The position numbers and the translations under genes were made by a program. Shown here piece after piece: positions 9,707 through 64,000 of a stretch of 64,000 nt of DNA. Each line of letters opens with the position of its first letter. Position 1 is the stretch's first letter. The DNA comes from Escherichia coli. GTDB lineage: Bacteria > Pseudomonadota > Gammaproteobacteria > Enterobacterales > Enterobacteriaceae. The stretch lies in assembly GCF_030013595.1 (NCBI RefSeq), contig NZ_CP122768.1; one strand, written 5' to 3'. A model generated the notes under the pieces. It saw nothing but the letters and a program-made list of their open reading frames with translations, searched no databases and was not told where the DNA came from.

Positions 9707-10245
9707 GCGCCTGTTTTCTCCTTTGCTGCCCGGCGCTGACGTTTGCGCTTCTCATTCAGCGCCACCAGCCGCGTTTCTGCGTCCTGTTGTTCCTGTGGTG
9801 TCACCTCGCCGCACGGCTGGCCTTTCAGGTCGTAGCGTACCCCACCAGCCATTAAGGCGCGGTAATAGCGCGGACACTGCGCATAAGATGCCAGCGTCGC
9901 ACGCAATGCCCCTGGACCGAATGCCAGCCCCCTGACGGCGAGATCCTGCATCAGGTCGTCGAATATCCCCACCTTAAGCGGCTTCGGTGCTTCCCGGCTG
10001 AATAATTCAGGCCACAACTCAGTGAGGCGGTTAACGCGCCTGCGGTTTTTGCGCTGGCGTTTGGTCATATGCCGCCACGGTGTCGCCCCTGTGGGCTTCT
10101 GCTGCGCTTTCTGGTTACCGGGCATCACTTTATGCGCCGATGTGGTTTTATCCTGCTCCTGCGCCGCCTGCGTCGTTTTCTGCGGCGTGCCGTAAATGCC
10201 TTTCGGTTTTCTGTTAATGGTCAGCTTAGTCATGCTTTGCCCCAT
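9703..10245 (-). CDS. ProQ/FinO-domain RNA-binding protein (180 aa)
   Basis: PKPLKVGIFDDL ... YAQCPRYYRAL ... RYDLKGQPCGEVT matches ProQ/FinO N-terminal domain pattern; K/R-rich tail. Confidence 0.6.
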   Translation of the reverse strand: MGQSMTKLTINRKPKGIYGTPQKTTQAAQEQDKTTSAHKVMPGNQKAQQKPTGATPWRHMTKRQRKNRRRVNRLTELWPELFSREAPKPLKVGIFDDLMQDLAVRGLAFGPGALRATLASYAQCPRYYRALMAGGVRYDLKGQPCGEVTPQEQQDAETRLVALNEKRKRQRRAAKEKTGA

Positions 10246-10392
10246 CGTTTTTACTGGTTGCTACGTTGCCCAACGGCACTGACACAACATTCTGTTTTCA
10301 TTTTTAACATTCCTGATTTTTTAATTCCTCACCTGCTGCACAGTGAAAATTTATGAAGTTAATAACAATATGATTTTAAATGTATTTTTAAG

Positions 10393-10713
10393 TACTCACT
10401 TTTTAATCCTTATATATACGCAAAAGTGAGGTAAATAGTTAAGTTTTAGTTAATATCTTGCATGGTGTGTTTTTTAACCTACCTGTTATTTTTATTACCT
10501 CATTTCTATTAACTCACCATTCCTCACTTTTGTTCCTCACTTTTTATTATTCTTGTTCTGCTCCTCAGTCGTTTTCTTTATTGTTGTAATCTGTTGTTTT
10601 GCAATGTGTTTTTAACTCCTCACTTTTTGACCTATATACAGGTGAGAAAGTGAGGAGTGGCGTTGATTTTTTGTTAAATTACCCGCCATCCTCACTTTTG
10701 CTCCTCACTTTTT
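10393..10713. repeat. Iteron-type replication origin: at least 7 copies of CCTCACTTTT (direct and inverted) in AT-rich DNA immediately 3' of rep
   Basis: Copies at about 10395, 10421 (inv), 10522, 10534, 10617, 10645 (inv), 10691, 10703. Confidence 0.6.
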
Positions 10714-12127
10714 ACAGTGGGCGCACATAATCACCGTCAATAGCGATTACGCCGTCGCTTTCCAGCTTGTACAGCCAGCGCCGGAAGTTTTTCATTTCAT
10801 ACCCCAGCTTTTTCATATCATCGCGGAGAAGGGCGATAGTGCACGCCTCCCCGTGTGCTGTTCGCGTTCTGATGCACTGCCATAGCGCAGCGTGATTTTC
10901 CGTCTTGTTCCCGGCCTCCTCGATGCGTTCCAGTTCAACAGGTGGGCGCGGCTTATCCACAACCACCAGCGACGTGATTAACTCCCCGTCAGTGTCGGTA
11001 AAAAGCTCCACCACGCGTAAATCATATGCAGCCTCTTTCAGTTCCTCCGCGTCCTTCATTTTGGTGCAGGAGATAACCAGGGCTTCACTGTCCGCACCTT
11101 CACGGCGAATACGGTATTCAGCGTCCAGAGATGCACGAAATGCACTGGAACCACGCGCCCCTTTTGTTTCATCCTTGCCGGAATGGTGAACCACCAGTAC
11201 CGTGGCCCCTGTGCGTCGTTTCAGTTCGTCACATCCACGGATAAACGCCCCCATATCCCGCGCGTCATTTTCATCATTACCGCCAAAGCAACGCGCCAGC
11301 GTATCCAGAATAATCATGCGTACCGGTTTACCCGTTTCCCGTTCAACCTGACGGGAAGCGATGACCATTTCATCAACATCAAGCGGGACCGCCGGAAAAA
11401 TCGGGCGGTTTACCAGGTACAGATTTTTCACCCGTTCATCATTAACGATTTCCCATGCTTTGATACGACGAGGAACACCGATCCCGCCCTCACCAACGAC
11501 ATACATAACCGCACCATGTACAACCCTGCGACCTCCCCAGTGGCGACCAGTGGCAACATGACACGCCCAGGAACACGCGAGGAACGATTTATAGGAACCG
11601 CTCGCGCCGTATGTGCTGCACAACGAATTAGCCGGAATCACGCCCTTAACGACATAATCAAGCTGTGTGTCGTATCCTGCAGATCCAATACTCATTGGTA
11701 GCGTGGTTTTTCGCTGGCTGTATTGCTCGTCAGTAAGTATTTCCCCGCGCTCTGCCTGTTCGCGGATCCGTTGCAGGTAGTCGTGCCAGTTCTCCAGCTT
11801 CTGGCTGTGCATTCCCTCAGGGTAATAATTCGCATCCCGTACACCTGCCGCCGCCAGTTTTTGCCCGATGGCATTAATATTTGACGGCTTGATGTGGCCT
11901 GCCTTGTACAGCCGGACACAATAGCGACCATCGTCGATAATTTTCAGGTCTGCCAGTTCGTCAAGCTGGCTGTCTCCCAGCCATACAGGCGGAACATTGT
12001 CGCCAGCAAGTCGCCCGTCCTGTTCCTGCCATTGTTTCGCGTGCGCCCAGGCATCACTACCCGCAAAAATAATGACTTCGGTCATTTTGTCGTGTGGCTG
12101 TTTTTTTAAGTTCGGTGCCAGTTTCAT
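10712..12127 (-). CDS. RepA-like replicative helicase / AAA_25-type ATPase (471 aa)
   Basis: Walker A GASGSYKS, Walker B MIILDTL, VVHHSGK; adjacent iterons. Confidence 0.7.
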   Translation of the reverse strand: MKLAPNLKKQPHDKMTEVIIFAGSDAWAHAKQWQEQDGRLAGDNVPPVWLGDSQLDELADLKIIDDGRYCVRLYKAGHIKPSNINAIGQKLAAAGVRDANYYPEGMHSQKLENWHDYLQRIREQAERGEILTDEQYSQRKTTLPMSIGSAGYDTQLDYVVKGVIPANSLCSTYGASGSYKSFLACSWACHVATGRHWGGRRVVHGAVMYVVGEGGIGVPRRIKAWEIVNDERVKNLYLVNRPIFPAVPLDVDEMVIASRQVERETGKPVRMIILDTLARCFGGNDENDARDMGAFIRGCDELKRRTGATVLVVHHSGKDETKGARGSSAFRASLDAEYRIRREGADSEALVISCTKMKDAEELKEAAYDLRVVELFTDTDGELITSLVVVDKPRPPVELERIEEAGNKTENHAALWQCIRTRTAHGEACTIALLRDDMKKLGYEMKNFRRWLYKLESDGVIAIDGDYVRPL

Positions 12128-12423
12128 TTTGTGCCCCTGAATGCGTTAATCATGTTTTTCATTTTCTGAATATTTGCCCGTGCCTTTGCGTTGCTGGTGG
12201 GCTGTTTGCGTGGTGTGGCCTGTATCAGTGAAAAATCACGCCGGAACTGATAAACAGGCATCACGCAGTCGTAGCTGTACCCATCACGGCGGTAAGTAAC
12301 GCACCGTCCGGCAATACTTTTAATCGTTACCGTGCCGCCGTAGTTATCCCGGAAAATATCGCCGGGGCGGATTTCAGGCCGAGGGAGACCACTGGCAGTA
12401 AAGCCAGAATTTTTCTTTTTCAT
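12124..12423 (-). CDS. Hypothetical protein (99 aa), translationally coupled to rep (4-bp overlap)
   Basis: ORF; operon packing. Confidence 0.45.
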   Translation of the reverse strand: MKKKNSGFTASGLPRPEIRPGDIFRDNYGGTVTIKSIAGRCVTYRRDGYSYDCVMPVYQFRRDFSLIQATPRKQPTSNAKARANIQKMKNMINAFRGTK

Positions 12424-12427
12424 GGTT

Positions 12428-12628
12428 TTATTTTCCTGTCAGCAGTTCCGGTTTTATTTCCGCACGAATACAGAGTTCAGAAAAAAATTCAGGAGAACCA
12501 ACAATCTCATTACTTTTCAGTCGGCATTGTGATTTCACTTTCCCTTTATCCAGGTAAACCAGTATGCGTCCGGTGAAATCATCTGGCACACTCAGGGTAA
12601 TTGTCATTGTTGCTTGCTGATTATCCAT
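12428..12628 (-). CDS. Hypothetical protein (66 aa) with one FTG-x-LV repeat unit
   Basis: Shares about 50-aa repeat with upstream 121-aa protein. Confidence 0.4.
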   Translation of the reverse strand: MDNQQATMTITLSVPDDFTGRILVYLDKGKVKSQCRLKSNEIVGSPEFFSELCIRAEIKPELLTGK

Positions 12629-12986
12629 GATTCACCCCCTGAATAACCTGATAACCGCAACTGGTCAGCAATTCGATAAATTCCGGCAGTGTTCCGAAAC
12701 AGCAATCATCTCGCAGCCGTTCTCGGGATACTTCAACGCCGTTTTCGTAGTGACTCACCATGCGTCCGGTAAAATGCAGATCATCATCGTGATGGCTCGT
12801 TAACGGCTTAATCAGTCGCGCACGTTCTGCCAGCTCCAGCAATGCTTCAACGCTTCCGGCAATTGCACCATCCGGCAGGTGATAATTACTTGCCACGCGT
12901 CCATTCTCCACGTTAACCAGTAGCTGCCCGGTGAATTTCTCATCAAACTGAATGCTGTTAAGGTCAGAAATTGACAGGTTAATCAT
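12621..12986 (-). CDS. Hypothetical protein (121 aa) with two internal FTG-x-LV repeat units
   Basis: Internal duplication visible in translation; 8-bp overlaps with neighbours. Confidence 0.45.
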   Translation of the reverse strand: MINLSISDLNSIQFDEKFTGQLLVNVENGRVASNYHLPDGAIAGSVEALLELAERARLIKPLTSHHDDDLHFTGRMVSHYENGVEVSRERLRDDCCFGTLPEFIELLTSCGYQVIQGVNHG

Positions 12987-13344
12987 GGCGTACCTCCTGG
13001 CGAATACGGGCAGCGAATACCATCACGCAGCCATCAGGAGATTGCTGGCGTGCTTCCTGTTCGCTGGTGGCCACGATGTGAATCACGCGCGGTTGTGCGG
13101 TGCTCAGGGCGATAAAACGCCAGATAAAATTGTTTTCGCATTTCTGAATAAACAGCGTGTTTTCTTCGCGCCCTTTCCATGTTGCCGAGATATAGCCCAT
13201 GCCATTGAGCATCTCGCAGGCATCAACCAGCGTATCAGCGGCTACGTGTACAGTGTTTTTACCGTCAGCTATGCAATCACGGTGCACCGCCAGGAAGGTG
13301 TATATAAATTTAGGGTGAGTTTGGGTATGCTGTGTTCCAGCCAT
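12979..13344 (-). CDS. Hypothetical protein (121 aa); first gene of alpA-distal operon
   Basis: ATG at 13344 with AGGT RBS; the 478-aa ORF-track extension to 14415 is judged spurious. Confidence 0.45.
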   Translation of the reverse strand: MAGTQHTQTHPKFIYTFLAVHRDCIADGKNTVHVAADTLVDACEMLNGMGYISATWKGREENTLFIQKCENNFIWRFIALSTAQPRVIHIVATSEQEARQQSPDGCVMVFAARIRQEVRHD

Positions 13345-13545
13345 AATCGTTACCTCATTTAACGGTTTGGTTAGAAGCCCCGTTACTGCTCCAACAGTGC
13401 GGGGCTTCGTCGTTTCAATTGCTGAATTGCATGTATCAGCCCTTGTGGTATTCAGATTACATTTTGGTGAATACCATTTCAAGTCTTTTTTGGTATTCAC
13501 TTTTGTATTACACTGCATCCCGTTATTAATCGGAGGTGCAAACAT

Positions 13546-52086: not shown

Positions 52087-52455
52087 TTACTTTTTCGTTT
52101 CGGGCGTCGGATAAACAGCCATATAAACGTAGCCACAACTGCCGAGGGTGTCGGCTTCGCAGGTCAGCCCTTTTGCATACAGCGTGACGGTATGCTGATG
52201 GCGGGGATTCAGTTCACCGCTGGTGAGCATGAGCTCCAGTTGTTTCATCAGCAGCGGAAAGGCCTGGTCTAGGTGGTACGAATCCGCGTCGCTGAACCGC
52301 CCTCTGATACCGGCGCGGTCGGCAAGGTAATGCAACCGGTTGCCTTCCTGTACCAGACGGGCACCAAAACAGGGCGTCACGGTGCAGGGCAGTCCCCACC
52401 AGGTGCGGTCGTTATTGTCGTCGGGAAGCGTTGTCCCGGGGAGTGTGTCTGACAC
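52087..52455 (-). CDS. CbeA/YafW/YeeU-family type IV antitoxin (122 aa)
   Basis: Family pattern; immediately upstream of toxin. Confidence 0.75.
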   Translation of the reverse strand: MSDTLPGTTLPDDNNDRTWWGLPCTVTPCFGARLVQEGNRLHYLADRAGIRGRFSDADSYHLDQAFPLLMKQLELMLTSGELNPRHQHTVTLYAKGLTCEADTLGSCGYVYMAVYPTPETKK

Positions 52456-52534
52456 GATAAAATCCTCACAGAAAATTGGTTAAGAATGGTCCGGTGGTGG
52501 CGATAATTCTGCTCTTCTGAATGCCCTTCCAGAC

Positions 52535-52756
52535 TCAGTTCAGGGTGACGCTCATCAGCCGGACATACGGACCAAAACTGTCCTTCCGGCGTTCTGCAAA
52601 CACAGCCAGCACACCGGGAATATCCTGTACTTCACGGCCGGTATATGTATCCGTGCTACCGTGCCAGCGGTATTTACCGGTACAGAACGGAAAAAGACGG
52701 GATGCAGGATGCTGACGGTGAATACGCATGGCTTCACCACGGGTGATGATTTTCAT
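52535..52756 (-). CDS. DUF987 protein (YkfH/YeeT-like, 73 aa)
   Basis: Position and size in CP4 module. Confidence 0.6.
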   Translation of the reverse strand: MKIITRGEAMRIHRQHPASRLFPFCTGKYRWHGSTDTYTGREVQDIPGVLAVFAERRKDSFGPYVRLMSVTLN

Positions 52757-52842
52757 GAGAATAGTCCTCCTGAATGTGAAAGTAAGAAACAGCTGAGAAA
52801 GAGAAACTGAAGTGATATGAAGGTGATTGTGACGGTGACGGG

Positions 52843-53334
52843 TTAAAGCAGACCGTGTTCCGCAAAGGAGAAAACCTGGCTGCCACCGATTATCAGATGG
52901 TCCGGTACCCGGATATCCACCAGGGCCAGTGCCTGTACCAGACGCTCAGTGATAAGGCGGTCTGCCTTGCTGGGGGTGACTTCACCGGACGGGTGATTGT
53001 GCGCCAGCACCACGGCAGCGGCATTGTGGTACAGGGCGCGTTTAATCACCTCCCGGGGATGGACTTCTGTGCGGTTGATGGTGCCAGTGAAGAGGGTTTC
53101 ACCGGCAATCAGCTGATTCTGGTTGTTCAGATACAGCACCCGGAACTCTTCCCGCTCCAGTCCCGCCATGTTCAGTATCAGCCATTCCCGTGCCGCATGC
53201 GTGGAGGTGAAGGCCACGCCGGGTTCATGAAGATGGCGGTCCAGGGTTTTCAGGGCCCGTTGAATGAGGCTGCGCTCGCCGGGCGTCATCTCTCCGGGCA
53301 GAAAGGAAAGCTGTTGCATTGTGCTTCTCTCCAT
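52843..53334 (-). CDS. RadC-like JAB-domain protein (YkfG/YeeS-like)
   Basis: JAMM motif HNHPSGEVTPSKAD. Confidence 0.8.
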   Translation of the reverse strand: MERSTMQQLSFLPGEMTPGERSLIQRALKTLDRHLHEPGVAFTSTHAAREWLILNMAGLEREEFRVLYLNNQNQLIAGETLFTGTINRTEVHPREVIKRALYHNAAAVVLAHNHPSGEVTPSKADRLITERLVQALALVDIRVPDHLIIGGSQVFSFAEHGLL

Positions 53335-53820
53335 TCAGTCGATGATGCGCATAATGGCGCTGCATTCCGGATGCTGCAGGGCGTAATCCCGCAGCCGGTA
53401 ATAATGGACCGTCATGGCATAACACTCCGTACGACAGGCATGATGACTGTACGTCATCAGACAGGCAGCAATGCCGGCGGCTTCCGGGCTCATTTCAGCG
53501 CGGTTGCCGTTCATGACATTGAACAGTACCCATATTTCGTCATCATCGTCATCCGGTTCGGGTGCCATAAATGCCCCGCCGTTGTTCAGAGTGTACAGAT
53601 TCCAGATACCACCGCAGTAGTCTTCGCTCAGACGGTCCATCCAGCCGAAAACACGGGGCTCCAGGGTCACCCACTGTGGAATGAGACCAAAGTGCTGCGG
53701 CCAGAAGCTGATGCGCTGTTCATCAGGGACTATGGTGGCAACCAGCTGAGGCTGGTCATTCCCTGATGCAGCGGTTACGGAAACAGAAGGAGTGGTGGAA
53801 TTATGCGAGACGGTTGTCAT
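53335..53820 (-). CDS. Anti-restriction protein (YafX/YfjX-like, 161 aa)
   Basis: Position in CP4 module; acidic stretch PEPDDDDDE. Confidence 0.6.
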   Translation of the reverse strand: MTTVSHNSTTPSVSVTAASGNDQPQLVATIVPDEQRISFWPQHFGLIPQWVTLEPRVFGWMDRLSEDYCGGIWNLYTLNNGGAFMAPEPDDDDDEIWVLFNVMNGNRAEMSPEAAGIAACLMTYSHHACRTECYAMTVHYYRLRDYALQHPECSAIMRIID

Positions 53821-53911
53821 GAGATTATTCCTTATAAAAAGTAAATGAATGGAAGAAACCCCGGGGGAAGGGACAAACGTGAGTCAGAACTGCGCTTTCA
53901 GGGAAAAGGCA

Positions 53912-54730
53912 TCAGCACATGCTCTCCAGCAGCGTTTCAGCCATTACCCACAATGCGCGATTGAGCTTAATGTCGGTGTCGATGCTGTGAATGGCACGGG
54001 TATGGATACGTTTCCCTCTGGCACTGCGACCGGAAATTCCGCCTTTCAGCATATTCTCCTGAATGGTCTGATAAGCACTCCACAGGTCCTTACCGTAATC
54101 CTCCCGGCGTCGTGGTGTCAGAATGTCGGCGGTGGTGACGGGCTGATGTTCGTCACCATAACGGTAAGTCAGTGCCGCCTGTGCCAGCGCCTGGCGTGCC
54201 GGTGGCGGCAGAATCAGCGACTGCATGGCATCACGCTTTTCCTCAATCCGCTCAAACACGCCCACCACCTCGTAAGCCCCTTCAATAACTTTCTCCACCA
54301 CATTTCCCCGGTGTGGAACACGCAATTCTCCCAGAGACTGACCGCAGACCAGTCCATTGGTACAAATGGCACGAAAATATCCGGGTAACATCTGGTAGCT
54401 GGATGAACCGTCATGGGAGTTGAGCAGAATAATTTCAGGGACATGCTGACCGGTTATCTGCCCGGCCCGCCGCAGACGCAGCATGTGTTTTGTGTATTCC
54501 CGGCGGCTCTGGTCGCGCACGCGGGTCTGGCAGGCAAAGAACGGCTGAAAGCCTTCCTGCTGCAGATTTTCCAGGACGGTGATAGTGGGAATGTACGCAT
54601 AGTGTTCACTTCGGGAGGTATGTCGGTTTTCCCCAAAAATACTCGGTACATGGCGCATCAGTTCTTCGTGTGTCAGCGGACGGTCACGGCGTATCTGGTT
54701 TACATGACCAAAACGACTCGCTAATCGCAT
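53912..54730 (-). CDS. YafZ/YfjQ-family protein (DUF932-like, 272 aa)
   Basis: Family pattern from memory; CP4 module position. Confidence 0.6.
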   Translation of the reverse strand: MRLASRFGHVNQIRRDRPLTHEELMRHVPSIFGENRHTSRSEHYAYIPTITVLENLQQEGFQPFFACQTRVRDQSRREYTKHMLRLRRAGQITGQHVPEIILLNSHDGSSSYQMLPGYFRAICTNGLVCGQSLGELRVPHRGNVVEKVIEGAYEVVGVFERIEEKRDAMQSLILPPPARQALAQAALTYRYGDEHQPVTTADILTPRRREDYGKDLWSAYQTIQENMLKGGISGRSARGKRIHTRAIHSIDTDIKLNRALWVMAETLLESMC

Positions 54731-54849
54731 TATTTGCTCCTTATGAATGAGTTAGCGGTATAAATGAATAAATATCCTCCGGCATAGCCGGAGGTTTTTC
54801 AAATGCGCCTGTAAGGCTCTGTTACCAGCCGCGCCCTAACAGGCGCATA

Positions 54850-55525
54850 CGATCTGACATTTGCATTCAACTTCGTTACTTACGGCCCGTAAACGGGCTG
54901 CCCGGATATGGAATCGATAACTGCTCCCCCATTTTATCCTCTTCAAGCTGGTGCTTTATGTAGTCCTGTATCTTCGCCGTGTTCTTACCCACCGTATCGA
55001 CATAGTACCCTCGGCACCAGAACTCCCTGTTTCTGTATTTGAATTTCAAATCCCCAAACTGCTCGTAAAGCATCAGACTGCTTTTCCCTTTCAGATATCC
55101 CATAAAGCCGGATACGCTCATTTTGGGTGGGATTTCCACAAGCATATGGATATGATCTGCGCAGCACTCTGCTTCCAGAATCCGTACGCTTTTCCACTCA
55201 CACAGCTTTCTCAAAATACTGCCTATCGCCCTACGCTTCTCTCCGTAAAACGCCAGTCTTCGGTATTTCGGCGCAAAAACTATGTGATATTTACAGTTCC
55301 AGCGGGTGTGCGCTAAGCTCTTTTCGTCCCCCATTGGGACCCCCTTTTGATTTCTTGTTTGACACTTGCAGTTGCCAGACCGCAAGGTGTTTTAACAAAT
55401 CAAAAGGGGTTTTAATAACTGGCTCAAAGCTGAAAGCTTTCCGGAACCCCCAGCCTAGCTGGGGGTTTTCTGTGCACAAAAAGCCGCGTCTCCCGGAGAA
55501 GACGCGGCCTGATGGGTGAAATGAA
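54850..55525. mobile_element. IS200/IS605-family insertion sequence (approximate ends)
   Basis: Y1/HUH transposase ORF flanked by structured ends; hairpins at 55340-55520. Confidence 0.65.
54876..55334 (-). CDS. tnpA: IS200-type transposase TnpA (about 152 aa)
   Basis: HUH motif HIHMLVEIPP and catalytic Tyr region YYVDTVG. Confidence 0.8.
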   Translation of the reverse strand: MGDEKSLAHTRWNCKYHIVFAPKYRRLAFYGEKRRAIGSILRKLCEWKSVRILEAECCADHIHMLVEIPPKMSVSGFMGYLKGKSSLMLYEQFGDLKFKYRNREFWCRGYYVDTVGKNTAKIQDYIKHQLEEDKMGEQLSIPYPGSPFTGRK

Positions 55526-55530
55526 GACGT

Positions 55531-55800
55531 TTATTGCCTGAGAATTCCCTCACTGGCGAGATACGGATTTAGCTGTTTTCCGGCATCAGGTTCAAAATTC
55601 CAGTACCGCCAGCGCAACTGACCTTCAGCATTACGGATAACCAGCCGGAAATGCGTTCCCTGGTCATCTTCAATAAGCACATTGCGGTAAGCTGTTGTGA
55701 CGGCAACCGCCTGTTCGCGTGAGAAAGGGCCTTCGGGTAATAAACGTGATGTACAACCCGGCATATCTGTTGCTCCCTGAAAGTAAAAGGCCCCGGTCAT
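55531..55800 (-). CDS. Hypothetical small protein (89 aa) downstream of Ag43
   Basis: ORF only. Confidence 0.4.
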
Positions 55801-55834
55801 GATGACCGGGGCCTGAAGGGGAGTGACCTGATTA

Positions 55835-58681
55835 TCAGAAAGTCACATTCAGCGTGGCCTGACCGTTATAACCTTCAGCGCTGCTGCCGCTGACGCTGTG
55901 GGCATAACCGGCCTGAACGCCCAGGGTGATATTTTCCCGGACACGGGCTTCCAGTCCGGCCTGCAGGTCCAGTGACGTGCCATTCTGGGATGGTGAGAAC
56001 GTCATGTTACTGCCGGCTGCGGCTGTACCCATGCTCATGTCACCCCGGGAGCTGAAGGTGCGGATAACAGAAGGCTGTACCCACCAGTTCACCGGCAGTT
56101 CACGCACACTGTGTTTTGCACTGTCGCGCAGGGTGTCACGGGATGAGGTGCCTTCACCAAAGGTCATATCGTTGTGGCTGCCCAGACGGAAACCGGCACG
56201 CACATGTTGTGCACTGCCATGCCCGAACTTCACATAACCGGCGTTATCCTGGCCGTCATCCAGGGAAAGTCCCTGCCAGGTATACTGCAGTTGTGGCTCC
56301 AGCATCAGGTTGTCAGTGATACTGAAGGGCAGACCGGTTTCCAGTGAGCCCAGCCAGCCCCAGCCCCGGGCGCGGAAGTCGTTATTGTCCGATGACGCTT
56401 TCATGCTGTGGCGGGTTCCCTGTGCCACAATGTCAGCCCACAGGCCGGAGGACGTGTGTGTCAGATTCAGGTATCCGCCCAGGCTGCCGGCATCATCCCG
56501 GACCGTGCCGGCACGGGAGCCGTCATCATCCTTAACATCAACGGAAGAATGGCCTGCAGCGCCATATACCCCCGTGGTCACAGACATACCGGCAACCTCT
56601 GTTCTCAGCAGGTCACCCTCCAGACGGACGAAGCCATAGCTGCCGCTGCTTTCCGGCGTGGCCCCACGGGCAATACCGCCGTTGTTATCGTGACCGAGAT
56701 GACCGCCCTGAATGCTGAGACGGACGCTGTTATTTTCACCGTTTACACCGGTCTGATGGCTGCGGGAGCCTGCCAGAATCCGGTCATAGTCCATTGCCTG
56801 TGTCAGCATGGAGGCATACAGGGGGACTTCAGCACGATAAGCATTTTCACTGCGCAGGTACCAGTCTTCATCGCTGTCACGGTTCAGGGTGTAGTTAAAG
56901 ACACCGGCCTGAAGCGGGCGACTCAGGGCAAACGCACCTTCTTCTGTGGTGGCACCATTCTGTGCATCCACAACCCGGATACCCTGTCCGGAGGTTGCCA
57001 CCCCGAGGTTACTGTTTCCGACATTTGTGAACGCAAGCCAGGTTTTGCCGGTTGCCTGACCACCATTAATCACCAGCTGGTCAGGGGCATTGCTGCCATC
57101 AAGGCGAACACGCATATTGATGGTGCCACCCTGACCGGTGAGGTTACTGGTGGTCAGTTTATGGAACGTTACCGGGGCGTCGCCTTTTGCAACAGCACGG
57201 CTCAGGACGGCATCCTGTGTCGTCTGATTATCAAAGCGAATCTCCCCTGCGTTAACAATATCGCCGGTACTGACCACATCACCATTCAGTACCATGCTGG
57301 CGCCTTTACTGAGCTGTGTTCTGCCACTCAGACTTCCCCCGGCAGCCAGCATCAGTGTCCCACGATGTCCGACAGTGGTGTTGCTGGCCTGTCCCCCGGC
57401 ATTAACCGTAAAGCTACCGCCATTTTCCAGCAGCAGGCCGCTGGCCTGACCGGATATACCATCAATACTGAACTTACCGCTGGCATTGGTCCCCTCAACA
57501 GTGGCACCACTGTCTGCAATCAGGGCACCACCGGATGTCATGGTGACACCTGTTGCCTTACCACCGGCAGACACTGCCAGGGTACCGCCGTCATCCACCC
57601 GTGTTTTCTGCGCTGAATGGCCCTCCAGTACATCCAGGCGACCGCCGGACTCCAGAACAAGGCCGTCAGCCTTACCGTTTTCCACCGTGAAATTGCCCAG
57701 ACGGTTGCTGCCGGTGACGGTTGCCGCCGTACTGGTGACCAGTGCGCCCCCCTGCTTCAGGGTGACATTCGTGGCTGTACCACCGGCGTTCACCTGCAGC
57801 TTGCCTTTCTGGTTAACGGTGGTGAAATCCGCCAGACCACCTTCCTTGATAATCTGCCAGCCGTCACTGTTTACAACAGTGCCAGACGCCGTACCGCCGT
57901 TGTGCACATACTGGTACCCCCCATTCAGCGTGGTATCCAGTGCGTGACCATGTACAGTCTGGTCGCCGCCGGCATAAACCACAGTGGTATTTACCGTTCC
58001 TTCAGCAGCCACAATCTGACGACCATTTTTATTGATGGTGGTGCGTACGGCATCTCCGTAGACGGTCTGCCCGGTATCACCATTTTCTGCATCCGGTCCC
58101 CCTTCCGCGCCGGTATTCACAACCGTGTCGGTTGCCACTGCGCCGGATTTGACGGCCTGCCAGCCCTTCTCATTAATGACAGTACCCGTTGCAATCCCGC
58201 CTTCATGTACCCACTGCTCACCGCCGTTCAGAGTGGTGTTCACTGCCTGCCCCTGAAGGCTCTGTCCGCCTCCGGCACTGATAACCGTGTCTGAAACGCT
58301 TCCTCCGGCATTCACTCTCTGAAGACCACCACCGGTGACAGTAGTGTTGTTGGCGATACCGCCATTTTGTATCCATTGTCCGCCGGTATTGGCCTCGTTA
58401 TCCGGCCCATACTCCAGACCGGTACTGATGGTCATTCCGTTGGCCGTACCGAAGACAATCTGGTTGTCATGATTTTCCAGTGTTCCGCCGCTCACGGTTT
58501 CTCCCGTCTGTACAACCGTGTCAGCAGCCAGTGCCGGGACTGATGTGACAGCAGCAAGAGACAGCGCAACCGCCACACCGGCGCGTTTTCCCCGTGAGCG
58601 GGCCAGTTCGGAGGTCACCACCAGGGTGCCCGTAATGTGATTCCATACCAGCCTGTAGCTGGTGTTCAGATGTCGTTTCAT
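55835..58681 (-). CDS. flu: Antigen 43 self-associating autotransporter adhesin (about 948 aa; ORF track start 58756)
   Basis: [35 protein letters not shown]... extended signal peptide; repetitive beta-helix passenger; C-terminal beta-barrel. Confidence 0.85.
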
Positions 58682-58898
58682 CAGCTTTTCCTTACAGAGG
58701 GTGAATAAAAAAGCCGGTACCCACAAATATGGGTACCGGCAGGTACAAAACAGCATGGTCAGATAAAGTGGTTTTTCCCGGACATAAATGCTTCTCCTCT
58801 CTCATCCGCCAGAGAAGTATCAGTCCGTTGTGTGCAATTCCGTTCTGCATGATGAAGAGATTCAGCTGCCTTTTCGCAGACCATTAACCACTATAAAC

Positions 58899-58934
58899 GA
58901 TCGATGGTAACGATCGATACATGTTTTATCGATC
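58899..58934. promoter_or_regulatory. Three GATC (Dam) sites at 58899, 58912, 58931 in Ag43 upstream region: OxyR/Dam phase-variation switch
   Basis: cGATCGATggtaacGATCGATacatgttttatcGATCGtttt, 220-250 bp upstream of flu start. Confidence 0.65.
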
Positions 58935-59052
58935 GTTTTATTCTATTAACAGCAAGGCAGTCACGCAAGAGAAAGAGGTGGGTATGAGGTGTTTGTGTCA
59001 TGTTTTCAGTTGGTTAACGCAATGTAATCAGGCATTTCCCCTGGCAGAGTGT

Positions 59053-59925
59053 TCAGAAGAAAATCCAGTTCCATACAGCGCGGGCAACAGAGACCACCGT
59101 GTCACGGACGACACGCAGAACCGTACGAGCCACAGAGGCAATACAGACGCTCTCCGCCGTGTCAAATATCCGGTCCACCGCACCGGTAAACTGTTCACGG
59201 GCCTGCCCCCGGACAGATTCCGTGCACAACTCGTCCTGCAGGCGGGTCATCAGGGGACTGGCGGCATGGTCGGGAAGTGCTGTCATGAGCGCACTGACCA
59301 GCGTATCCAGTTCCCAGCCGGTGCGGGCCGATACGGCCACAACCGGATGTACGGGCCGGAACAGCCGGAATACCGCATCTGTTTTCTCACGAATGTTCTG
59401 TTCCTGTGCGGGAGAAGGCTGAATACCTGCCATATCCCATTCATGGCAGGGCTCCGTTTTGTCGGCCTGCGTCACCACAAACAGCACCTGCTGATGTCCC
59501 CGGTGCAGGATGTGTCGCCAGAAATACTCATCCACAGACAGGGCACGGTCATCGGCTTTAATCAGCCACAGTACCAGGTCAAGTTCAGGCAGAATGTCAC
59601 GGTACAGGGCTTCATACTCTGCATCCCTGTCCCGGCTCTCGCCCACCCCGGGTAGGTCAGTGATAACCATGCTGTGACCATGGCCACTCAGACGGAAGCG
59701 CTGCGCTTCCCGGGTGCCGGCGTGAACATCACTGACCGGGGTGACCTCCCCCTGAAACAGTGCATTACAGAGTGAGGATTTACCGGCCCCGCTTTTCCCC
59801 ATAATGCCAATCACGGGTTCGTGGCTGGTGAGTTTGCGCAGATGTTCCAGGATGTGACGGGAAAGTGAGTAAGGAAGAGAAGAAAGTGGTTTTTCAATTG
59901 CCTCAATGGCATCAGACGGATTCAT
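59053..59925 (-). CDS. YeeP/YkfA-family GTPase (about 290 aa; ORF track start 59964)
   Basis: P-loop GKSGAGKSSLCNALF; DLPG G3 motif. Confidence 0.75.
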   Translation of the reverse strand: MNPSDAIEAIEKPLSSLPYSLSRHILEHLRKLTSHEPVIGIMGKSGAGKSSLCNALFQGEVTPVSDVHAGTREAQRFRLSGHGHSMVITDLPGVGESRDRDAEYEALYRDILPELDLVLWLIKADDRALSVDEYFWRHILHRGHQQVLFVVTQADKTEPCHEWDMAGIQPSPAQEQNIREKTDAVFRLFRPVHPVVAVSARTGWELDTLVSALMTALPDHAASPLMTRLQDELCTESVRGQAREQFTGAVDRIFDTAESVCIASVARTVLRVVRDTVVSVARAVWNWIFF

Positions 59926-59954
59926 ACATGTATTCCCGGTGAAAAAAGACAAAA

Positions 59955-59980
59955 CCCCGCGCACCGGAAAGGTGGCGGGG
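59955..59980. other. GC-rich hairpin CCCCGCGCACC-ggaaa-GGTGGCGGGG; on minus strand followed by T-run
   Basis: Perfect inverted repeat seen directly. Confidence 0.4.
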
Positions 59981-60255
59981 GATTCACGGAGATAATATCT
60001 GTCTGAAATTATTTAGGATGCAGGTATCTTCAGATAATCGCACCCCCAGAATTTTATTCTTAATAGTTGAATAGTGGTATTTGGTTTCCCTGAGAGAATA
60101 TAAAGATGAATCATGCTGTATTGAGTTTGATTCTATTTGTACTGAGACAGGTATCTTCATGATTATAATCAAAAGCCGGGTGGATTGGTCTGGCGCTAAT
60201 TATTTTCTCGAATAAACTCACTAATTATTGTAACCATCCCAAAGGAGATGATTTT

Positions 60256-62400
60256 ATGTATAATTGTGGTGAATCATATTCAGAATACGACATATCATTA
60301 TCTGACGATGAAAACTATAACGATGACTATTATCGTGAGCGCCCGTGCCCGGGAGAAGTTTTCGGCTATGATAATGATGTACCACGGTTTAGTAAGATTG
60401 CACGGTCTTATTTGCTCCACGTGGGTAGCCTTGACTGGACCAAGATAAATCCGGATATCTTTGGCTCCATGATTCAGGCAATTGCCGAAGATGAAGAGCG
60501 CGGAGAGCTGGGTATGCATTACACCAGCGTACCCAACATCTTAAAAGTTTTGAATCCACTATTTCTTGACGACCTGCGTGCACAGCTGGACGAGGCTGGT
60601 GACAATCCACGTATGTTGCTGAACCTGCGCAAACGCATTTCCCACATTCGTGTGTTCGACCCAGCGTGCGGTTCTGGGAACTTTTTGGTTATCGCGTATA
60701 AGGAAATGCGTGCCATTGAGGCCGAAATCAACAAGAGGCGCAGTGAGCCGGATCGTGCCTCGGATATTCCACTTACCAACTTTCGCGGGATTGAACTACG
60801 AGATTTCCCGGCAGAAATCGCCCGCCTTGCGCTTGTTATCGCTGAGTACCAATGTGATGTGCTGTACCGTGGGCTGCGGCTGGCCTTGGCTGAGCTTCTT
60901 CCTTTACGCAACGAAAATTGGATTACTTGTGGCAATGCACTGCGGCTCGACTGGTTAAGAATTTGTCCGCCAACGGGAACCAGTGTGAAATTACATGGTG
61001 ACGACTTGTTTGGATCACCGCTTGATCAGGCAGAGATTGACTTTGAAAATGAAGGAGGAGAGACATATATTTGTGGAAATCCTCCATACAAGGGTAGCCA
61101 AACCCAAACTGATGACCAAAAAAATGATCTAAAAGCCATATTCGAGAAACGCACAACTAATTGGAAGTCATTGGATTATGTTGCAGGTTGGTTTATGAAG
61201 GCTGTCGACTACGGTAGTCAAACTAACTCGTCTGCTGCGTTCGTCTCAACTAATTCCATTTGTCAAGGTAGACAGGTCGAAACCCTTTGGTCGTTGATTT
61301 TTGCAGCCAAGCATGAAATATCCTTTGCTTATACGTCCTTCAAATGGGCAAATCTTGCTAGCCACAATGCGGGAGTGAGTGTCATTGTTGTGGGAATTTC
61401 TAATCATGTTAAGGGCCCCCGGAAAATATTTTCCACAACTGAGGATTTGGGGACCATCATAAAAGAAGTAGACAACATCAATGCGTATCTTGTCGCGGGT
61501 AAAAGCACAATTGTTGCACAGCGAAGTTTTCCTTTATCCGAAGTAAGTGTAATGGATTTTGGTTCAATGGCGAACGATGGTGGTGGCCTTCTTTTTGACA
61601 GTTCAGAATCAAGTCGTGCAGTTAATGATTATGGTGCTGATATTTGTTATTTTCGAAAGGCTTGGGGAGCTAAGGAGTTTATTTCTGGAACTCCTAGAGC
61701 TTGCCTGTGGTTAAATAAAGACAGTGCTAAAAAAGCAATTCTGAACTCTTGGATTTCAGACCGAATTGAGATCACACGTAAGGCCAGAGCAAATAGTCCT
61801 CGGGCAGCGACAAAAAAACTAGCAGATATTGCTTACAGATTTGGTGAAGTGAGGCAAGACGGCAGCGAGCGAATCATTATTGTTCCCAGTGTCAGTTCTG
61901 AACGTAGGGAGTATCTTCCATGTGGTTATCTCGATGTTGGTTCAATCGTTATCGCTCCGAATCTTGCTTTCTATGATTCCCCGCTTTGGAATATGGCGCT
62001 TATTGCTTCTAGGTTGCATTTGGTATGGGTGGCGACAGTCTGCGGGCGTATCAAAACTGACTATCGCTACTCTAATACCCTTGGCTGGAATACTTTCCCT
62101 GTCCCACCACTCACTGAGAAAAACAAGGCCGACCTTACGCGTTGCGCAGAGGATATCCTACTGGCGCGGGAACACCACTTCCCTGCGACTATTGCGGATT
62201 TGTATGATCCCGCGAACATGCCCCCTGACCTGCGTGCTGCCCATGAACGAAACGACGAAGTGCTGGAACGCATCTATATAGGGCGACGATTCAAGAACGA
62301 CACTGAGCGGCTGGAAAAGTTGTTCGACCTCTACACGAAAATGATTGCTTCGACTGCACCGGTCAAAGGTAAGAAGCGCAAAGCAGGAAATAACGAATGA
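60256..62400 (+). CDS. Gamma-class N6-adenine DNA methyltransferase with large C-terminal putative target-recognition region (714 aa)
   Basis: SAM motif I VFDPACGSGNFLV (about aa 135) and catalytic motif IV ICGNPPYKG (about aa 270); GGAG RBS. Confidence 0.75.
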   Translation: MYNCGESYSEYDISLSDDENYNDDYYRERPCPGEVFGYDNDVPRFSKIARSYLLHVGSLDWTKINPDIFGSMIQAIAEDEERGELGMHYTSVPNILKVLNPLFLDDLRAQLDEAGDNPRMLLNLRKRISHIRVFDPACGSGNFLVIAYKEMRAIEAEINKRRSEPDRASDIPLTNFRGIELRDFPAEIARLALVIAEYQCDVLYRGLRLALAELLPLRNENWITCGNALRLDWLRICPPTGTSVKLHGDDLFGSPLDQAEIDFENEGGETYICGNPPYKGSQTQTDDQKNDLKAIFEKRTTNWKSLDYVAGWFMKAVDYGSQTNSSAAFVSTNSICQGRQVETLWSLIFAAKHEISFAYTSFKWANLASHNAGVSVIVVGISNHVKGPRKIFSTTEDLGTIIKEVDNINAYLVAGKSTIVAQRSFPLSEVSVMDFGSMANDGGGLLFDSSESSRAVNDYGADICYFRKAWGAKEFISGTPRACLWLNKDSAKKAILNSWISDRIEITRKARANSPRAATKKLADIAYRFGEVRQDGSERIIIVPSVSSERREYLPCGYLDVGSIVIAPNLAFYDSPLWNMALIASRLHLVWVATVCGRIKTDYRYSNTLGWNTFPVPPLTEKNKADLTRCAEDILLAREHHFPATIADLYDPANMPPDLRAAHERNDEVLERIYIGRRFKNDTERLEKLFDLYTKMIASTAPVKGKKRKAGNNE

Positions 62401-64000
62401 ACAATAAAATCAAGAATGTACCTTCCGTTTCCGTTACTTATGCACGTAATGGCGCATCAACCAAAGCTAATGTGCTTGGGATGCGTCCTATGCAGGAGAG
62501 AGCTTATGAAAAGCGCGGCGAGCAGTACTTGCTTATCAAATCACCACCGGCATCAGGTAAAAGCCGCGCACTGATGTTCATAGCACTCGACAAACTCGAA
62601 AACCAAGGGATTAAACAGGCAATCATCGTTGTGCCGGAAAAATCTATCGGCGCGAGTTTCAACGATGAACCGCTATCGCAGTTTGGATTCTGGGCTGATT
62701 GGCATGTCGAACCTAAGTGGAACCTATGCAACGCGCCCGGTAACGACAACGGGGGCAAGGTAAGATCTTTTGGCTCTTTTCTTGAAAGTAGCGACAAGGT
62801 GCTTGTTTGCACACACGCAACCTTTCGCTTCGCGGTCGATGCCTATGGCGTAGAAGCGTTTGACGATCGCCTGATCGCCGTCGATGAATTCCACCATGTG
62901 TCAGCTAACCCGGATAACAAGCTTGGTCAGCATCTGGGGCAGTTCATCGCGCGTGATAAGACACACATCGTTGCCATGACCGGCTCCTACTTCCGTGGTG
63001 ATGCGGAGGCCGTTTTGGCTCCTCAGGATGAGTCCAGGTTCGATACCGTCACCTATACCTACTACGAACAACTCAACGGTTACGAATACCTCAAGCAACT
63101 CGATATCGGCTACTTCTTTTACAGTGGCTCCTACGTCGATGACATCCTTAATGTCCTCGATCCTGACAAAAAGACCATTATCCATATACCCAACGTCAAT
63201 TCGCGCGAGAGCACGAAGGATAAAATCAAGGAAGTGGAGCATATTCTTAGCGAGCTTGGCGATTGGCAAGGTGCGGATCCTGCGACTGGTTTCCAGCTAG
63301 TCAAATGCCTCGATGGCCGAATGTTGCGTATAGCTGATCTGGTGGACCCAACTAGTCAAGGCAAGATTCAGGAAAGCCTTCGTGCTGCAGAAATGAAGAC
63401 AGACCGTGACTATGTAGACATCATTATTGCACTTGGTATGGCGAAGGAAGGTTTTGACTGGATTTGGTGCGAACATGCGCTGACCGTTGGCTACCGTGCC
63501 AGCCTGACTGAGATCGTGCAGATTATCGGTCGCGCTACTCGCGACGCGCCGGGTAAAAACCGCGCAAGGTTTACTAACCTGATCGCCGAGCCGGATGCTG
63601 TTGAGGGGGCTGTCACCGAGGCAGTCAACGATACCTTGAAAGCCATCGCGGCAAGCCTGCTGATGGAGCAAGTATTAGCTCCGCGCTTCGAGTTCAAGCC
63701 TAAGAACCCAGAAAGTGGTCCGGCCCCAGGCTTTGATTATGGTGATGGTGGATATGACCCGGATAGCTGTAATTTTGGTGTTAATGAGCAGACAGGGACG
63801 TATCAAATCGAGATTAAGGGACTTGCCGAGCCCAGGAGCAAAGAGGCGGCACGCATCTGCCAGGAAGATTTAAACGAAGTGATCGCGGCCTTTGTGCAGG
63901 ATAAGCCCGCCATCGAACGAGGCCTGTTCGATGAAGAGCTGATTCCTGAAGAGTTAACTCAGGTTCGTATGGGTAAGATCATCAAAGAAAAGTATCCTGA
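62397..64000 (+). CDS. SF2 helicase/translocase, 5' partial (first about 534 codons, continues past window end); translationally coupled to the methyltransferase (ATGA overlap)
   Basis: Motif I SPPASGKSRAL, motif II VDEFHH, motif III MTGSY, motif VI QIIGRATRD; not in ORF track because no stop in window. Confidence 0.7.
   Translation, partial: MNNKIKNVPSVSVTYARNGASTKANVLGMRPMQERAYEKRGEQYLLIKSPPASGKSRALMFIALDKLENQGIKQAIIVVPEKSIGASFNDEPLSQFGFWADWHVEPKWNLCNAPGNDNGGKVRSFGSFLESSDKVLVCTHATFRFAVDAYGVEAFDDRLIAVDEFHHVSANPDNKLGQHLGQFIARDKTHIVAMTGSYFRGDAEAVLAPQDESRFDTVTYTYYEQLNGYEYLKQLDIGYFFYSGSYVDDILNVLDPDKKTIIHIPNVNSRESTKDKIKEVEHILSELGDWQGADPATGFQLVKCLDGRMLRIADLVDPTSQGKIQESLRAAEMKTDRDYVDIIIALGMAKEGFDWIWCEHALTVGYRASLTEIVQIIGRATRDAPGKNRARFTNLIAEPDAVEGAVTEAVNDTLKAIAASLLMEQVLAPRFEFKPKNPESGPAPGFDYGDGGYDPDSCNFGVNEQTGTYQIEIKGLAEPRSKEAARICQEDLNEVIAAFVQDKPAIERGLFDEELIPEELTQVRMGKIIKEKYP

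Follow-up and report, generated by a model that had tools for sequence, protein, structure and literature searches.

A probable Escherichia coli copy of the YeeA(DnmA)-YeeB-YeeC cassette with a lineage-specific deletion in its methylase gene

The 3' end of the 64,000 nt stretch of Escherichia coli DNA analysed here (contig NZ_CP122768.1, henceforth the window) carries a methylase-like open reading frame (ORF) followed by the first part of a superfamily 2 (SF2) helicase gene, which a sequence-only reading had proposed to form a modification-dependent defence module within island cargo. The ORFs, motifs and gene overlap described in that reading are all present in the window sequence. The analysis below indicates that the two genes very probably belong to the YeeA(DnmA)-YeeB-YeeC cassette, described in 2009, and finds that the first of them is a chimera created by a deletion; the coordinates of the features are collected in Table 1.

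Genes of the locus and the deletion junction

In the 714-amino acid (aa) product of the methylase-like ORF, motif I (FDPACGSGNFL; residue 134, nt 60655) precedes the NPPY of motif IV (residue 275, nt 61078), which is the order of the gamma class. An AAGGAG ribosome-binding site at 60242-60247 lies 8 nt 5' of the ATG, while the TGA (62398-62400) overlaps the ATG of the helicase gene (62397-62399) as ATGA; the frame opened by this ATG runs to base 64000, and the translational coupling that had been postulated is upheld. The helicase frame encodes the motifs ASGKS (residue 52), DEFH (163), TGS (195) and QIIGRATR (375). Such features of the window sequence are far beyond chance. The 714-aa protein is matched by the PADLOC model PDLC03598 (E-value 9e-226), only across positions 260-910 of the 912 in the profile.

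When window positions 60000-64000 were compared by megablast with the complete genomes of E. coli (5426 in number), 67 of these covered the query; among the 20 best genomes listed, the match is split into two or three parts that together extend over 6.3-7.5 kb. For strain H8 (CP010172; locus L001), blastn aligns window positions 55478-60375 with L001 4479-9376 and, at 100% identity, positions 60372-64000 with L001 11668-15296. The H8 segment that is missing from the window holds the 3' part of a 60-aa ORF, remnants of IS66, the upstream region of the native gene, and codons 1-253 of that gene, which encodes a 928-aa protein and is annotated as 'class I SAM-dependent DNA methyltransferase'. From residue 40 onward the window protein is identical to residues 254-928 of this protein, with no mismatches after the join, and the fusion owes its start codon and AAGGAG ribosome-binding site to the 60-aa ORF. 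Rather than a native gene, the 714-aa ORF is a chimera produced by a deletion; the sequence-only reading missed this 5' truncation, and with it the lack of the N-terminal domain. The boundaries in MmeI are 1-155 for the nuclease, 156-300 for the spacer and 301-620 for the methylase (PMC4833311), and in our reading of the alignment to MmeI residue 253 of the 928-aa protein corresponds approximately to MmeI residue 265. Judged by this alignment, the deletion took away the whole N-terminal domain along with some three quarters of the helical spacer.

None of the 5426 complete genomes contains the junction. Nineteen public contigs nevertheless encode exactly this 714-aa protein, and one of them, a 3.4 Mb contig of the same lineage (L088), is 99.98% identical to window positions 52256-64000; these observations, along with the 100% identity past the junction, imply that the deletion is real, lineage-specific and recent. 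The same gene has been broken a second time, independently, by an ISKpn26 insertion in E. coli DSM 103246 (L002 13062-14042, equivalent to window positions 61693-61697), despite which the helicase gene and the gene downstream of it remain intact in that strain. A promoter scan 5' of the fusion returned one site, no more than in shuffled controls.

The 60-aa ORF that supplies the new 5' end (L001 9257-9439) encodes a very acidic product, about a third of its residues being D or E, behind a strong ribosome-binding site. It is divergent from the adjoining YeeP-like GTPase gene; the island has an antirestriction gene as well, and about 850 complete E. coli genomes contain this region. As a guess, the product could be a small DNA-mimic-like protein.

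Extension of the locus past the window edge was possible through L088. The helicase gene is intact there (10142-12187), encoding a protein of 681 aa identical to that of H8, and its end is overlapped by the start of a third gene (12180-13358), which encodes a 392-aa protein, also identical in H8, and is followed by insertion sequence (IS) debris. The helicase matches the Pfam families DEAD and ResIII, the latter (E-value 2e-5) across the generic SF2 core only. Its motifs are invariant in all ten of the diverse homologues compared, and there is no nuclease domain at its C-terminus. The C-terminal part of the 392-aa protein (residues 262-372) matches the Pfam families T5orf172 and MUG113, which are of GIY-YIG type; it has the GIY, YKIG and R motifs, and the patterns G-x-x-Y-V, Y/H-K-I/V-G, E-x-R-I and P-x-E-W-F are conserved across phyla. 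A sequence search of the PDB detected no relative of either the helicase or the nuclease, and the PADLOC and NCBIfam models gave only weak matches of these two proteins to PbeA and dnd-restriction entries (E-values 2e-5 to 3e-3), which were treated as generic SF2 similarity.

The 928-aa allele contains all five MmeI Pfam domains. A PADLOC model for Type IIG enzymes fits it from end to end with 925 bits, and a phmmer comparison with MmeI (PDB 5HR4) gives an E-value of 4e-132 over residues 88-927, the alignment starting only at residue 88. The order of the motifs and the matches to MmeI_Mtase and MmeI_TRD bear out the earlier assignment of the window protein as a gamma-class N6-adenine methyltransferase with its own target-recognition domain (TRD). 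The region of roughly 400 aa that had been allotted to target recognition does contain a TRD, of 205 aa; the remainder of that span is the rest of the methylase domain and a C-terminal helical bundle of approximately 80 aa. The window protein retains every methylase and TRD motif.

The catalytic residues of MmeI are D70, E80 and K82 (PMC2731913). Comparison of the E. coli protein with four homologues, which come from Bacillota, Actinomycetota and Vibrio, revealed no conserved (D/E)xK motif in residues 1-170; the only such motif of the E. coli protein in this span is D95-G-K, the lysine of which is not conserved. The N-terminal domain is nevertheless conserved across phyla, with F23, L28, I38, N58, T94, D95 and D103 among its invariant residues.

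The specificity code of MmeI (PMC2731914) was carried over to the E. coli protein by means of the alignment to MmeI. The residues concerned are S545, N569, L570, K600, D602 and R604 in the numbering of the window protein (numbering of the 928-aa allele in Table 1), and the site to which they point is NNCGAG, with A5 as the predicted methylated base. This predicted site shares CGAG with the GACGAG of Bacillus subtilis DnmA and the GCCGAG of NmeAIII.

Table 1. Features of the locus, domains of the methylase and predicted specificity positions (window coordinates unless another molecule is named)
Feature	Coordinates	Strand	Basis or remark
Methylase-like ORF, 714 aa: chimeric, 5'-truncated yeeA/dnmA-like gene (MmeI-family gamma-class N6-adenine methyltransferase, TRD and C-terminal bundle)	60256-62400	+	ORF listing; PADLOC; alignment to 928-aa allele
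First 39 codons of the fusion, from the 60-aa acidic hypothetical ORF (WP_000282126.1 in other E. coli)	60256-60372	+	Translation and alignment
Deletion junction with TAAT microhomology; 2291 bp gone relative to other E. coli	60372-60375	.	blastn of window against L001
MmeI_N	Residues 1-159 of 928-aa allele		Pfam; deleted in window
MmeI_hel	Residues 170-250 of 928-aa allele		Pfam; deleted in window
MmeI_Mtase, with motifs I and IV inside	60586-61431	+	Residues 325-606 of 928-aa allele; PF20473, E 1.3e-115
MmeI_TRD, 205 aa	61498-62112	+	Residues 629-833 of 928-aa allele; PF20466, E 7.5e-73
MmeI_C helical bundle	62116-62346	+	Residues 835-911 of 928-aa allele; PF20467, E 1.1e-17
yeeB-like SF2 (DEAD/ResIII-type) helicase gene, codons 1-534 of 681	62397-64000	+	Open frame, no stop to base 64000; cut by window edge
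Site position 3, predicted C	S759/N783 of 928-aa allele		As NmeAIII S761/N783
Site position 4, predicted G	L784 with R818 of 928-aa allele		Large residue at A774 position, R at R810 position
Site position 6, predicted G	K814-x-D816 of 928-aa allele		KxD pattern
Ag43/Cah-type autotransporter gene	55835-58756	-	Upstream of fusion
YeeP-like GTPase gene	59053-59964	-	Upstream of fusion
IS200/IS605-type Y1 transposase insertion between DUF932 and DUF905 genes	54772-55478 (ORF 54876-55385)	-
Example inserts between yeeA-like and yeeB-like genes	L063 2312-3514; L024 3342-4976; L039 986-2149; L038 3859-4941; L020 4125-4991; L033 3230-4879		Among loci L017-L085

Published relatives and conservation of the gene order

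Morgan et al. divided the homologues of MmeI into two groups in 2009, the first of which has a PD-ExK nuclease motif (PMC2731913). Members of the second lack this motif, differ over their first ~100 residues, and are 'invariably' flanked by a YeeB-like DEAD-type helicase and a YeeC-like GIY-YIG protein (PMC2731913). The E. coli proteins have the features of this second group: MmeI-like spacer, methylase, TRD and C-terminal regions, of which the window retains residues 254-928; a divergent N-terminus without PD-ExK; a DEAD helicase encoded directly downstream; and a GIY-YIG protein encoded by the third gene, which lies outside the window and was seen in L088. No second methyltransferase or specificity gene flanks the cassette, the annotated neighbours in L001, L002 and L088 being IS remnants, the GTPase and an ISL3 element. 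The trio has since been studied in B. subtilis, where YeeA was renamed DnmA and methylates GACGAG at 99.7% of sites (PMC7261158), and in Vibrio. Contrary to what the sequence-only reading had supposed, the architecture had already been described, and the locus falls largely within a known class of restriction-modification system. A literature search for newer work on the combination of MmeI, helicase and GIY-YIG proteins returned nothing beyond the papers cited here.

Resemblance to helicase-methylase-ATPase (Hma) systems had also been suggested, on which basis the locus would be a new, unclassified module of that type. A methylase does lie beside a helicase in an island, and the helicase and nuclease match no PADLOC system model except, weakly, PbeA. 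The third gene, however, encodes a GIY-YIG/T5orf172 nuclease and not an ATPase, no PADLOC match to a model named Hma was obtained, the methylase fits the Type IIG model over its full length with a high score, and the architecture has been in print since 2009, such that the Hma interpretation is extremely unlikely.

Plasmid annotations from Niallia, Rhodococcus, Vibrio parahaemolyticus and Ligilactobacillus show the gene order methylase-helicase-GIY-YIG. The helicase family forms 553 clusters (50% identity) at E-values below 1e-30, and a scan of species-representative genomes detected at least 574 confirmed stretches in many bacterial phyla and one archaeon. Synteny was counted in the best 80 of these. 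In all 79 loci with enough flanking sequence the helicase gene is immediately followed by a YeeC-like gene, and in 69 of 72 it is preceded by a YeeA-like gene of the same orientation; the YeeA-like and helicase genes are adjacent in 38 of these 69 loci and separated by 0.2-4.4 kb in the other 31. Published work likewise found a helicase at position +1 and a T5orf172 protein at position +2 to be conserved across genomes (PMC9973331).

This linkage bears on the possibility that the methylase is an ordinary stand-alone Type IIL enzyme beside which a helicase gene happens to lie. The set of five MmeI domains in the full-length allele and its Type IIG label in PADLOC would suit such an enzyme, but equivalents of D70, E80 and K82 are absent, the helicase and GIY-YIG genes are linked in every one of the 79 loci, across phyla, and two proteins without PD-ExK, YeeA and the Moraxella protein MslORFHP, lacked endonuclease activity when each was expressed by itself (PMC2731913). 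The stand-alone enzyme is consequently regarded as very improbable.

The inserts examined between yeeA-like and yeeB-like genes carry defence genes, namely those for Shedu SduA, AbiU, SoFic, PDC-S05, PDC-S13/DinD, PDC-S32, a PD-Lambda-2_B/RmrA-like protein and PDC-M59A (Table 1). The embedding of defence genes within an operon is a familiar habit of Type I restriction-modification operons. Their presence provides independent support for a defence role of the cassette. A family of ~550 aa recurs in the inserts of ten loci, its sole match being a weak one to a SIR2/pAgo-associated entry.

All 120 matches listed in a search for homologues of the E. coli helicase are at least 90% identical to it and come from Enterobacterales and Alcaligenaceae. 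The genome scan was led by the Niallia helicase, and B. subtilis is not among the best 80 loci; its nearest proxies are the plasmid cassette of Niallia (Bacillaceae) and a locus of Bacillus mediterraneensis (L013). The full three-gene cassette occurs in the archaeon Methanococcoides seepicolus (L061 5001-6908). Some helicase homologues are far longer than 681 aa (P0163, 1181 aa; P0140, 838 aa), which suggests fusions with another domain. A Moraxella osloensis plasmid (AP031476.1; L007 4995-8561), looked at as a link to the MslORFHP of Morgan et al., has a yeeB-like helicase gene and a GIY-YIG gene flanked by toxin-antitoxin genes. No methylase is annotated beside this pair in the PLSDB gene table, which is incomplete; it may be a helicase-nuclease pair without a YeeA component, or else the absence may reflect the table.

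The placement of the window genes in island cargo beside a YeeP-like GTPase gene is confirmed. Next to the GTPase gene, immediately upstream of the fusion, lies an Ag43/Cah-type autotransporter gene, and further along the collinear islands are DUF905, DUF932, antirestriction, RadC/JAB, DUF987 and CbeA/CbtA genes, a CP4-44-like layout. The Y1 transposase insertion of the window is present in L088 and absent from the collinear islands of H8 and DSM 103246. A scan of the whole window for a tRNA gene that might mark the attachment site of the island found none.

Proposed function of the cassette and consequences of the deletion

The locus is considered to be an E. coli representative of the YeeA(DnmA)-YeeB-YeeC cassette, a restriction-modification-like system of three genes in the MmeI family, with a lineage-specific deletion in its first gene, a reading to which a probability of roughly 0.82 is assigned. 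It is a damaged copy of a kind of system described in 2009 rather than a new architecture.

In the intact cassette, the 928-aa YeeA-like protein would serve as specificity subunit and methylase in one. Its TRD would read a short asymmetric site, predicted to be NNCGAG, and its methylase domain would place N6-methyladenine (m6A) on one strand, as shown for DnmA. The N-terminal domain, a homologue of the MmeI nuclease domain minus the D...ExK residues, may couple recognition of the site to the two partners; it was speculated in 2009 that this domain interacts with both of them in a Type I-like system with modification of one strand (PMC2731913). The YeeB-like SF2 helicase or translocase and the YeeC-like GIY-YIG nuclease would then cut unmethylated incoming DNA, in a manner similar to Type I enzymes. 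Defence, or restriction, is the most likely ancestral function, and to this extent the proposal of a defence module holds; the description 'modification-dependent' is misleading, as the expected logic is restriction from which methylation protects, not that of Type IV-like systems.

The 2291 bp deletion took out residues 1-253 and joined the remainder in frame to the start of the small upstream ORF, leaving the helicase and nuclease genes intact and translationally coupled. The chimera is thought, with odds slightly in favour, still to bind and methylate its site while no longer directing the helicase and nuclease, and would as such be a restriction-defective remnant, effectively an orphan methylase. 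Methylation may survive because the methylase and TRD motifs are kept and because the gamma-class enzyme M.TaqI, which is superimposable on the methylase-TRD core of MmeI, works without an N-terminal domain or spacer (PMC4833311). Restriction has probably been lost because the N-terminal domain is conserved yet non-catalytic, if this domain is indeed the coupling module. Damage to the methylase seems to be tolerated: B. subtilis ΔdnmA strains grow normally, with unchanged transformation efficiency (PMC7261158), and the E. coli gene has suffered two independent disruptions with its partners left intact. Such tolerance is in keeping with cutting that depends on the specificity subunit, as in Type I systems.

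The same example of M.TaqI, and the intactness of the methylase and TRD motifs, weigh against the whole cassette being dead cargo, in which an unstable or inactive chimera would permit neither methylation nor cutting. In favour of this outcome, which is judged unlikely if by no means negligible, the deletion ends inside the helical spacer, leaving part of it preceded by 39 foreign acidic residues, IS debris surrounds the locus, and the same gene has been knocked out independently by an IS. Conversely, the truncated cassette could still be a working defence, with the core of methylase, TRD and C-terminal region recruiting or licensing the helicase and nuclease, for instance through the C-terminal bundle. 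The in-frame fusion, strong ribosome-binding site and retained ATGA coupling could be seen in this light, as could the persistence of the allele on 19 contigs and the identity of the helicase and nuclease to those of full-length strains. However, the perfect identity past the junction marks the deletion as recent, so that intact partners say little about selection, and the conservation across phyla of an N-terminal domain without catalytic residues argues that it has a function; continued defence therefore appears distinctly improbable. A truncated allele functional in a new way is held to be similarly doubtful. Either the core alone would license the partners, in which case the conserved, nuclease-like N-terminal domain would not be a coupling module, or the chimera would have become a stably expressed orphan epigenetic methylase, a role that has been argued for B. 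subtilis DnmA, while the helicase-nuclease pair, like the one on the M. osloensis plasmid with no annotated methylase beside it, would act independently.

Several points count against interpreting the locus as a cassette of the YeeA group whose restriction activity has been uncoupled. Assignment to the group follows the published description of its members, and the evidence on the E. coli members consists of their gene sequences. The B. subtilis trio neither restricts transformation nor protects against three phages (PMC7261158, PMC9973331), infection by these Bacillus phages being unaltered by loss of dnmA, yeeB or yeeC, and the authors call the locus a relic (PMC9973331). Restriction by the family is proven only genetically and in one strain, of Vibrio crassostreae, in which resistance to one phage subclade required yeeAB (bioRxiv 10.1101/2021.05.05.442762). 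The coupling role of the N-terminal domain is a speculation dating from 2009, and the truncated allele might still restrict; alternatively, the truncated protein might misfold and fail even to methylate. Finally, the predicted NNCGAG relies on a code worked out with MmeI enzymes that possess a nuclease.

The YeeA-YeeB-YeeC cassette is very widespread, its mechanism has been a guess since 2009, and the literature is in conflict, with no restriction observed in B. subtilis as against phage resistance in one Vibrio strain. The natural alleles of E. coli (full-length, N-terminally deleted and IS-disrupted) are isogenic and found in a tractable host, and could be used to test whether the dead nuclease domain has a coupling role. 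There is also a lesson for annotation, in that the '714-aa methyltransferase' is a fusion artefact, and that defence-finding tools will label the locus as Type IIG and miss the two partner genes.

Comparison with known systems

The earlier conclusion that the locus is neither a canonical Type I nor a Type III system is supported by the gamma-class motif order and by the lack of S and HsdR genes. Type I was rejected as every copy lacks an S gene, NCBIfam and PADLOC models gave no HsdR match for the helicase, and Type I methyltransferase models reach only 21-22 bits with the methylase. Type III was rejected on account of the motif order, the MmeI-type methylase, the generic nature of the ResIII match to the SF2 core and the helicase having no C-terminal nuclease. 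PglX of BREX, DrmMI of DISARM and ArmB of ARMADA are distantly related methylase/TRD proteins, with PADLOC scores of 74 bits for DrmMI and 24-25 bits for PglX; these scores are far below those of the family models. BREX and DISARM were rejected since the PglX models, for which the cut-offs are 400-900, reach no more than 29 bits, and the DrmMI match covers only part of the protein. No PglZ, BrxC, DrmA/B or YprA-type partner genes lie nearby.

Type ISP enzymes such as LlaGI and LlaBIII likewise combine a nuclease, an SF2 helicase, an adenine methylase and a TRD, and methylate one strand of an asymmetric site; they do so within one polypeptide that has an Mrr-type nuclease, whereas here there are three proteins and the nuclease is of GIY-YIG type. 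With Type I systems such as EcoKI the cassette shares a methylase/specificity component, an SF2 motor and a nuclease, an apparent tolerance of the loss of specificity, and embedded defence genes in many taxa. It differs in that the TRD is inside the methylase chain, with no HsdS, that the site is predicted to be asymmetric and contiguous and methylated on one strand, and that the nuclease is a separate GIY-YIG protein instead of the PD-(D/E)xK domain of HsdR; no match to the HsdR or HsdM families was obtained. The five-domain layout, in-chain TRD, gamma-class m6A methylase, alignable specificity positions and, probably, methylation of one strand are shared with MmeI and the other Type IIL enzymes, which differ by possessing D70, E80 and K82; cutting is here presumably left to the separate helicase and GIY-YIG nuclease.

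The closest likeness in composition is to DnmA-YeeB-YeeC of B. subtilis and yeeAB of V. crassostreae, where an MmeI-like methylase/TRD protein without PD-ExK is followed by a DEAD-type SF2 helicase and then a T5orf172/GIY-YIG protein, again with neither a second methylase nor an S subunit, and in an island or defence context. The window allele is set apart from these by having a foreign 39-aa leader in place of the N-terminal domain, and by a predicted site of NNCGAG as compared with the GACGAG of DnmA.

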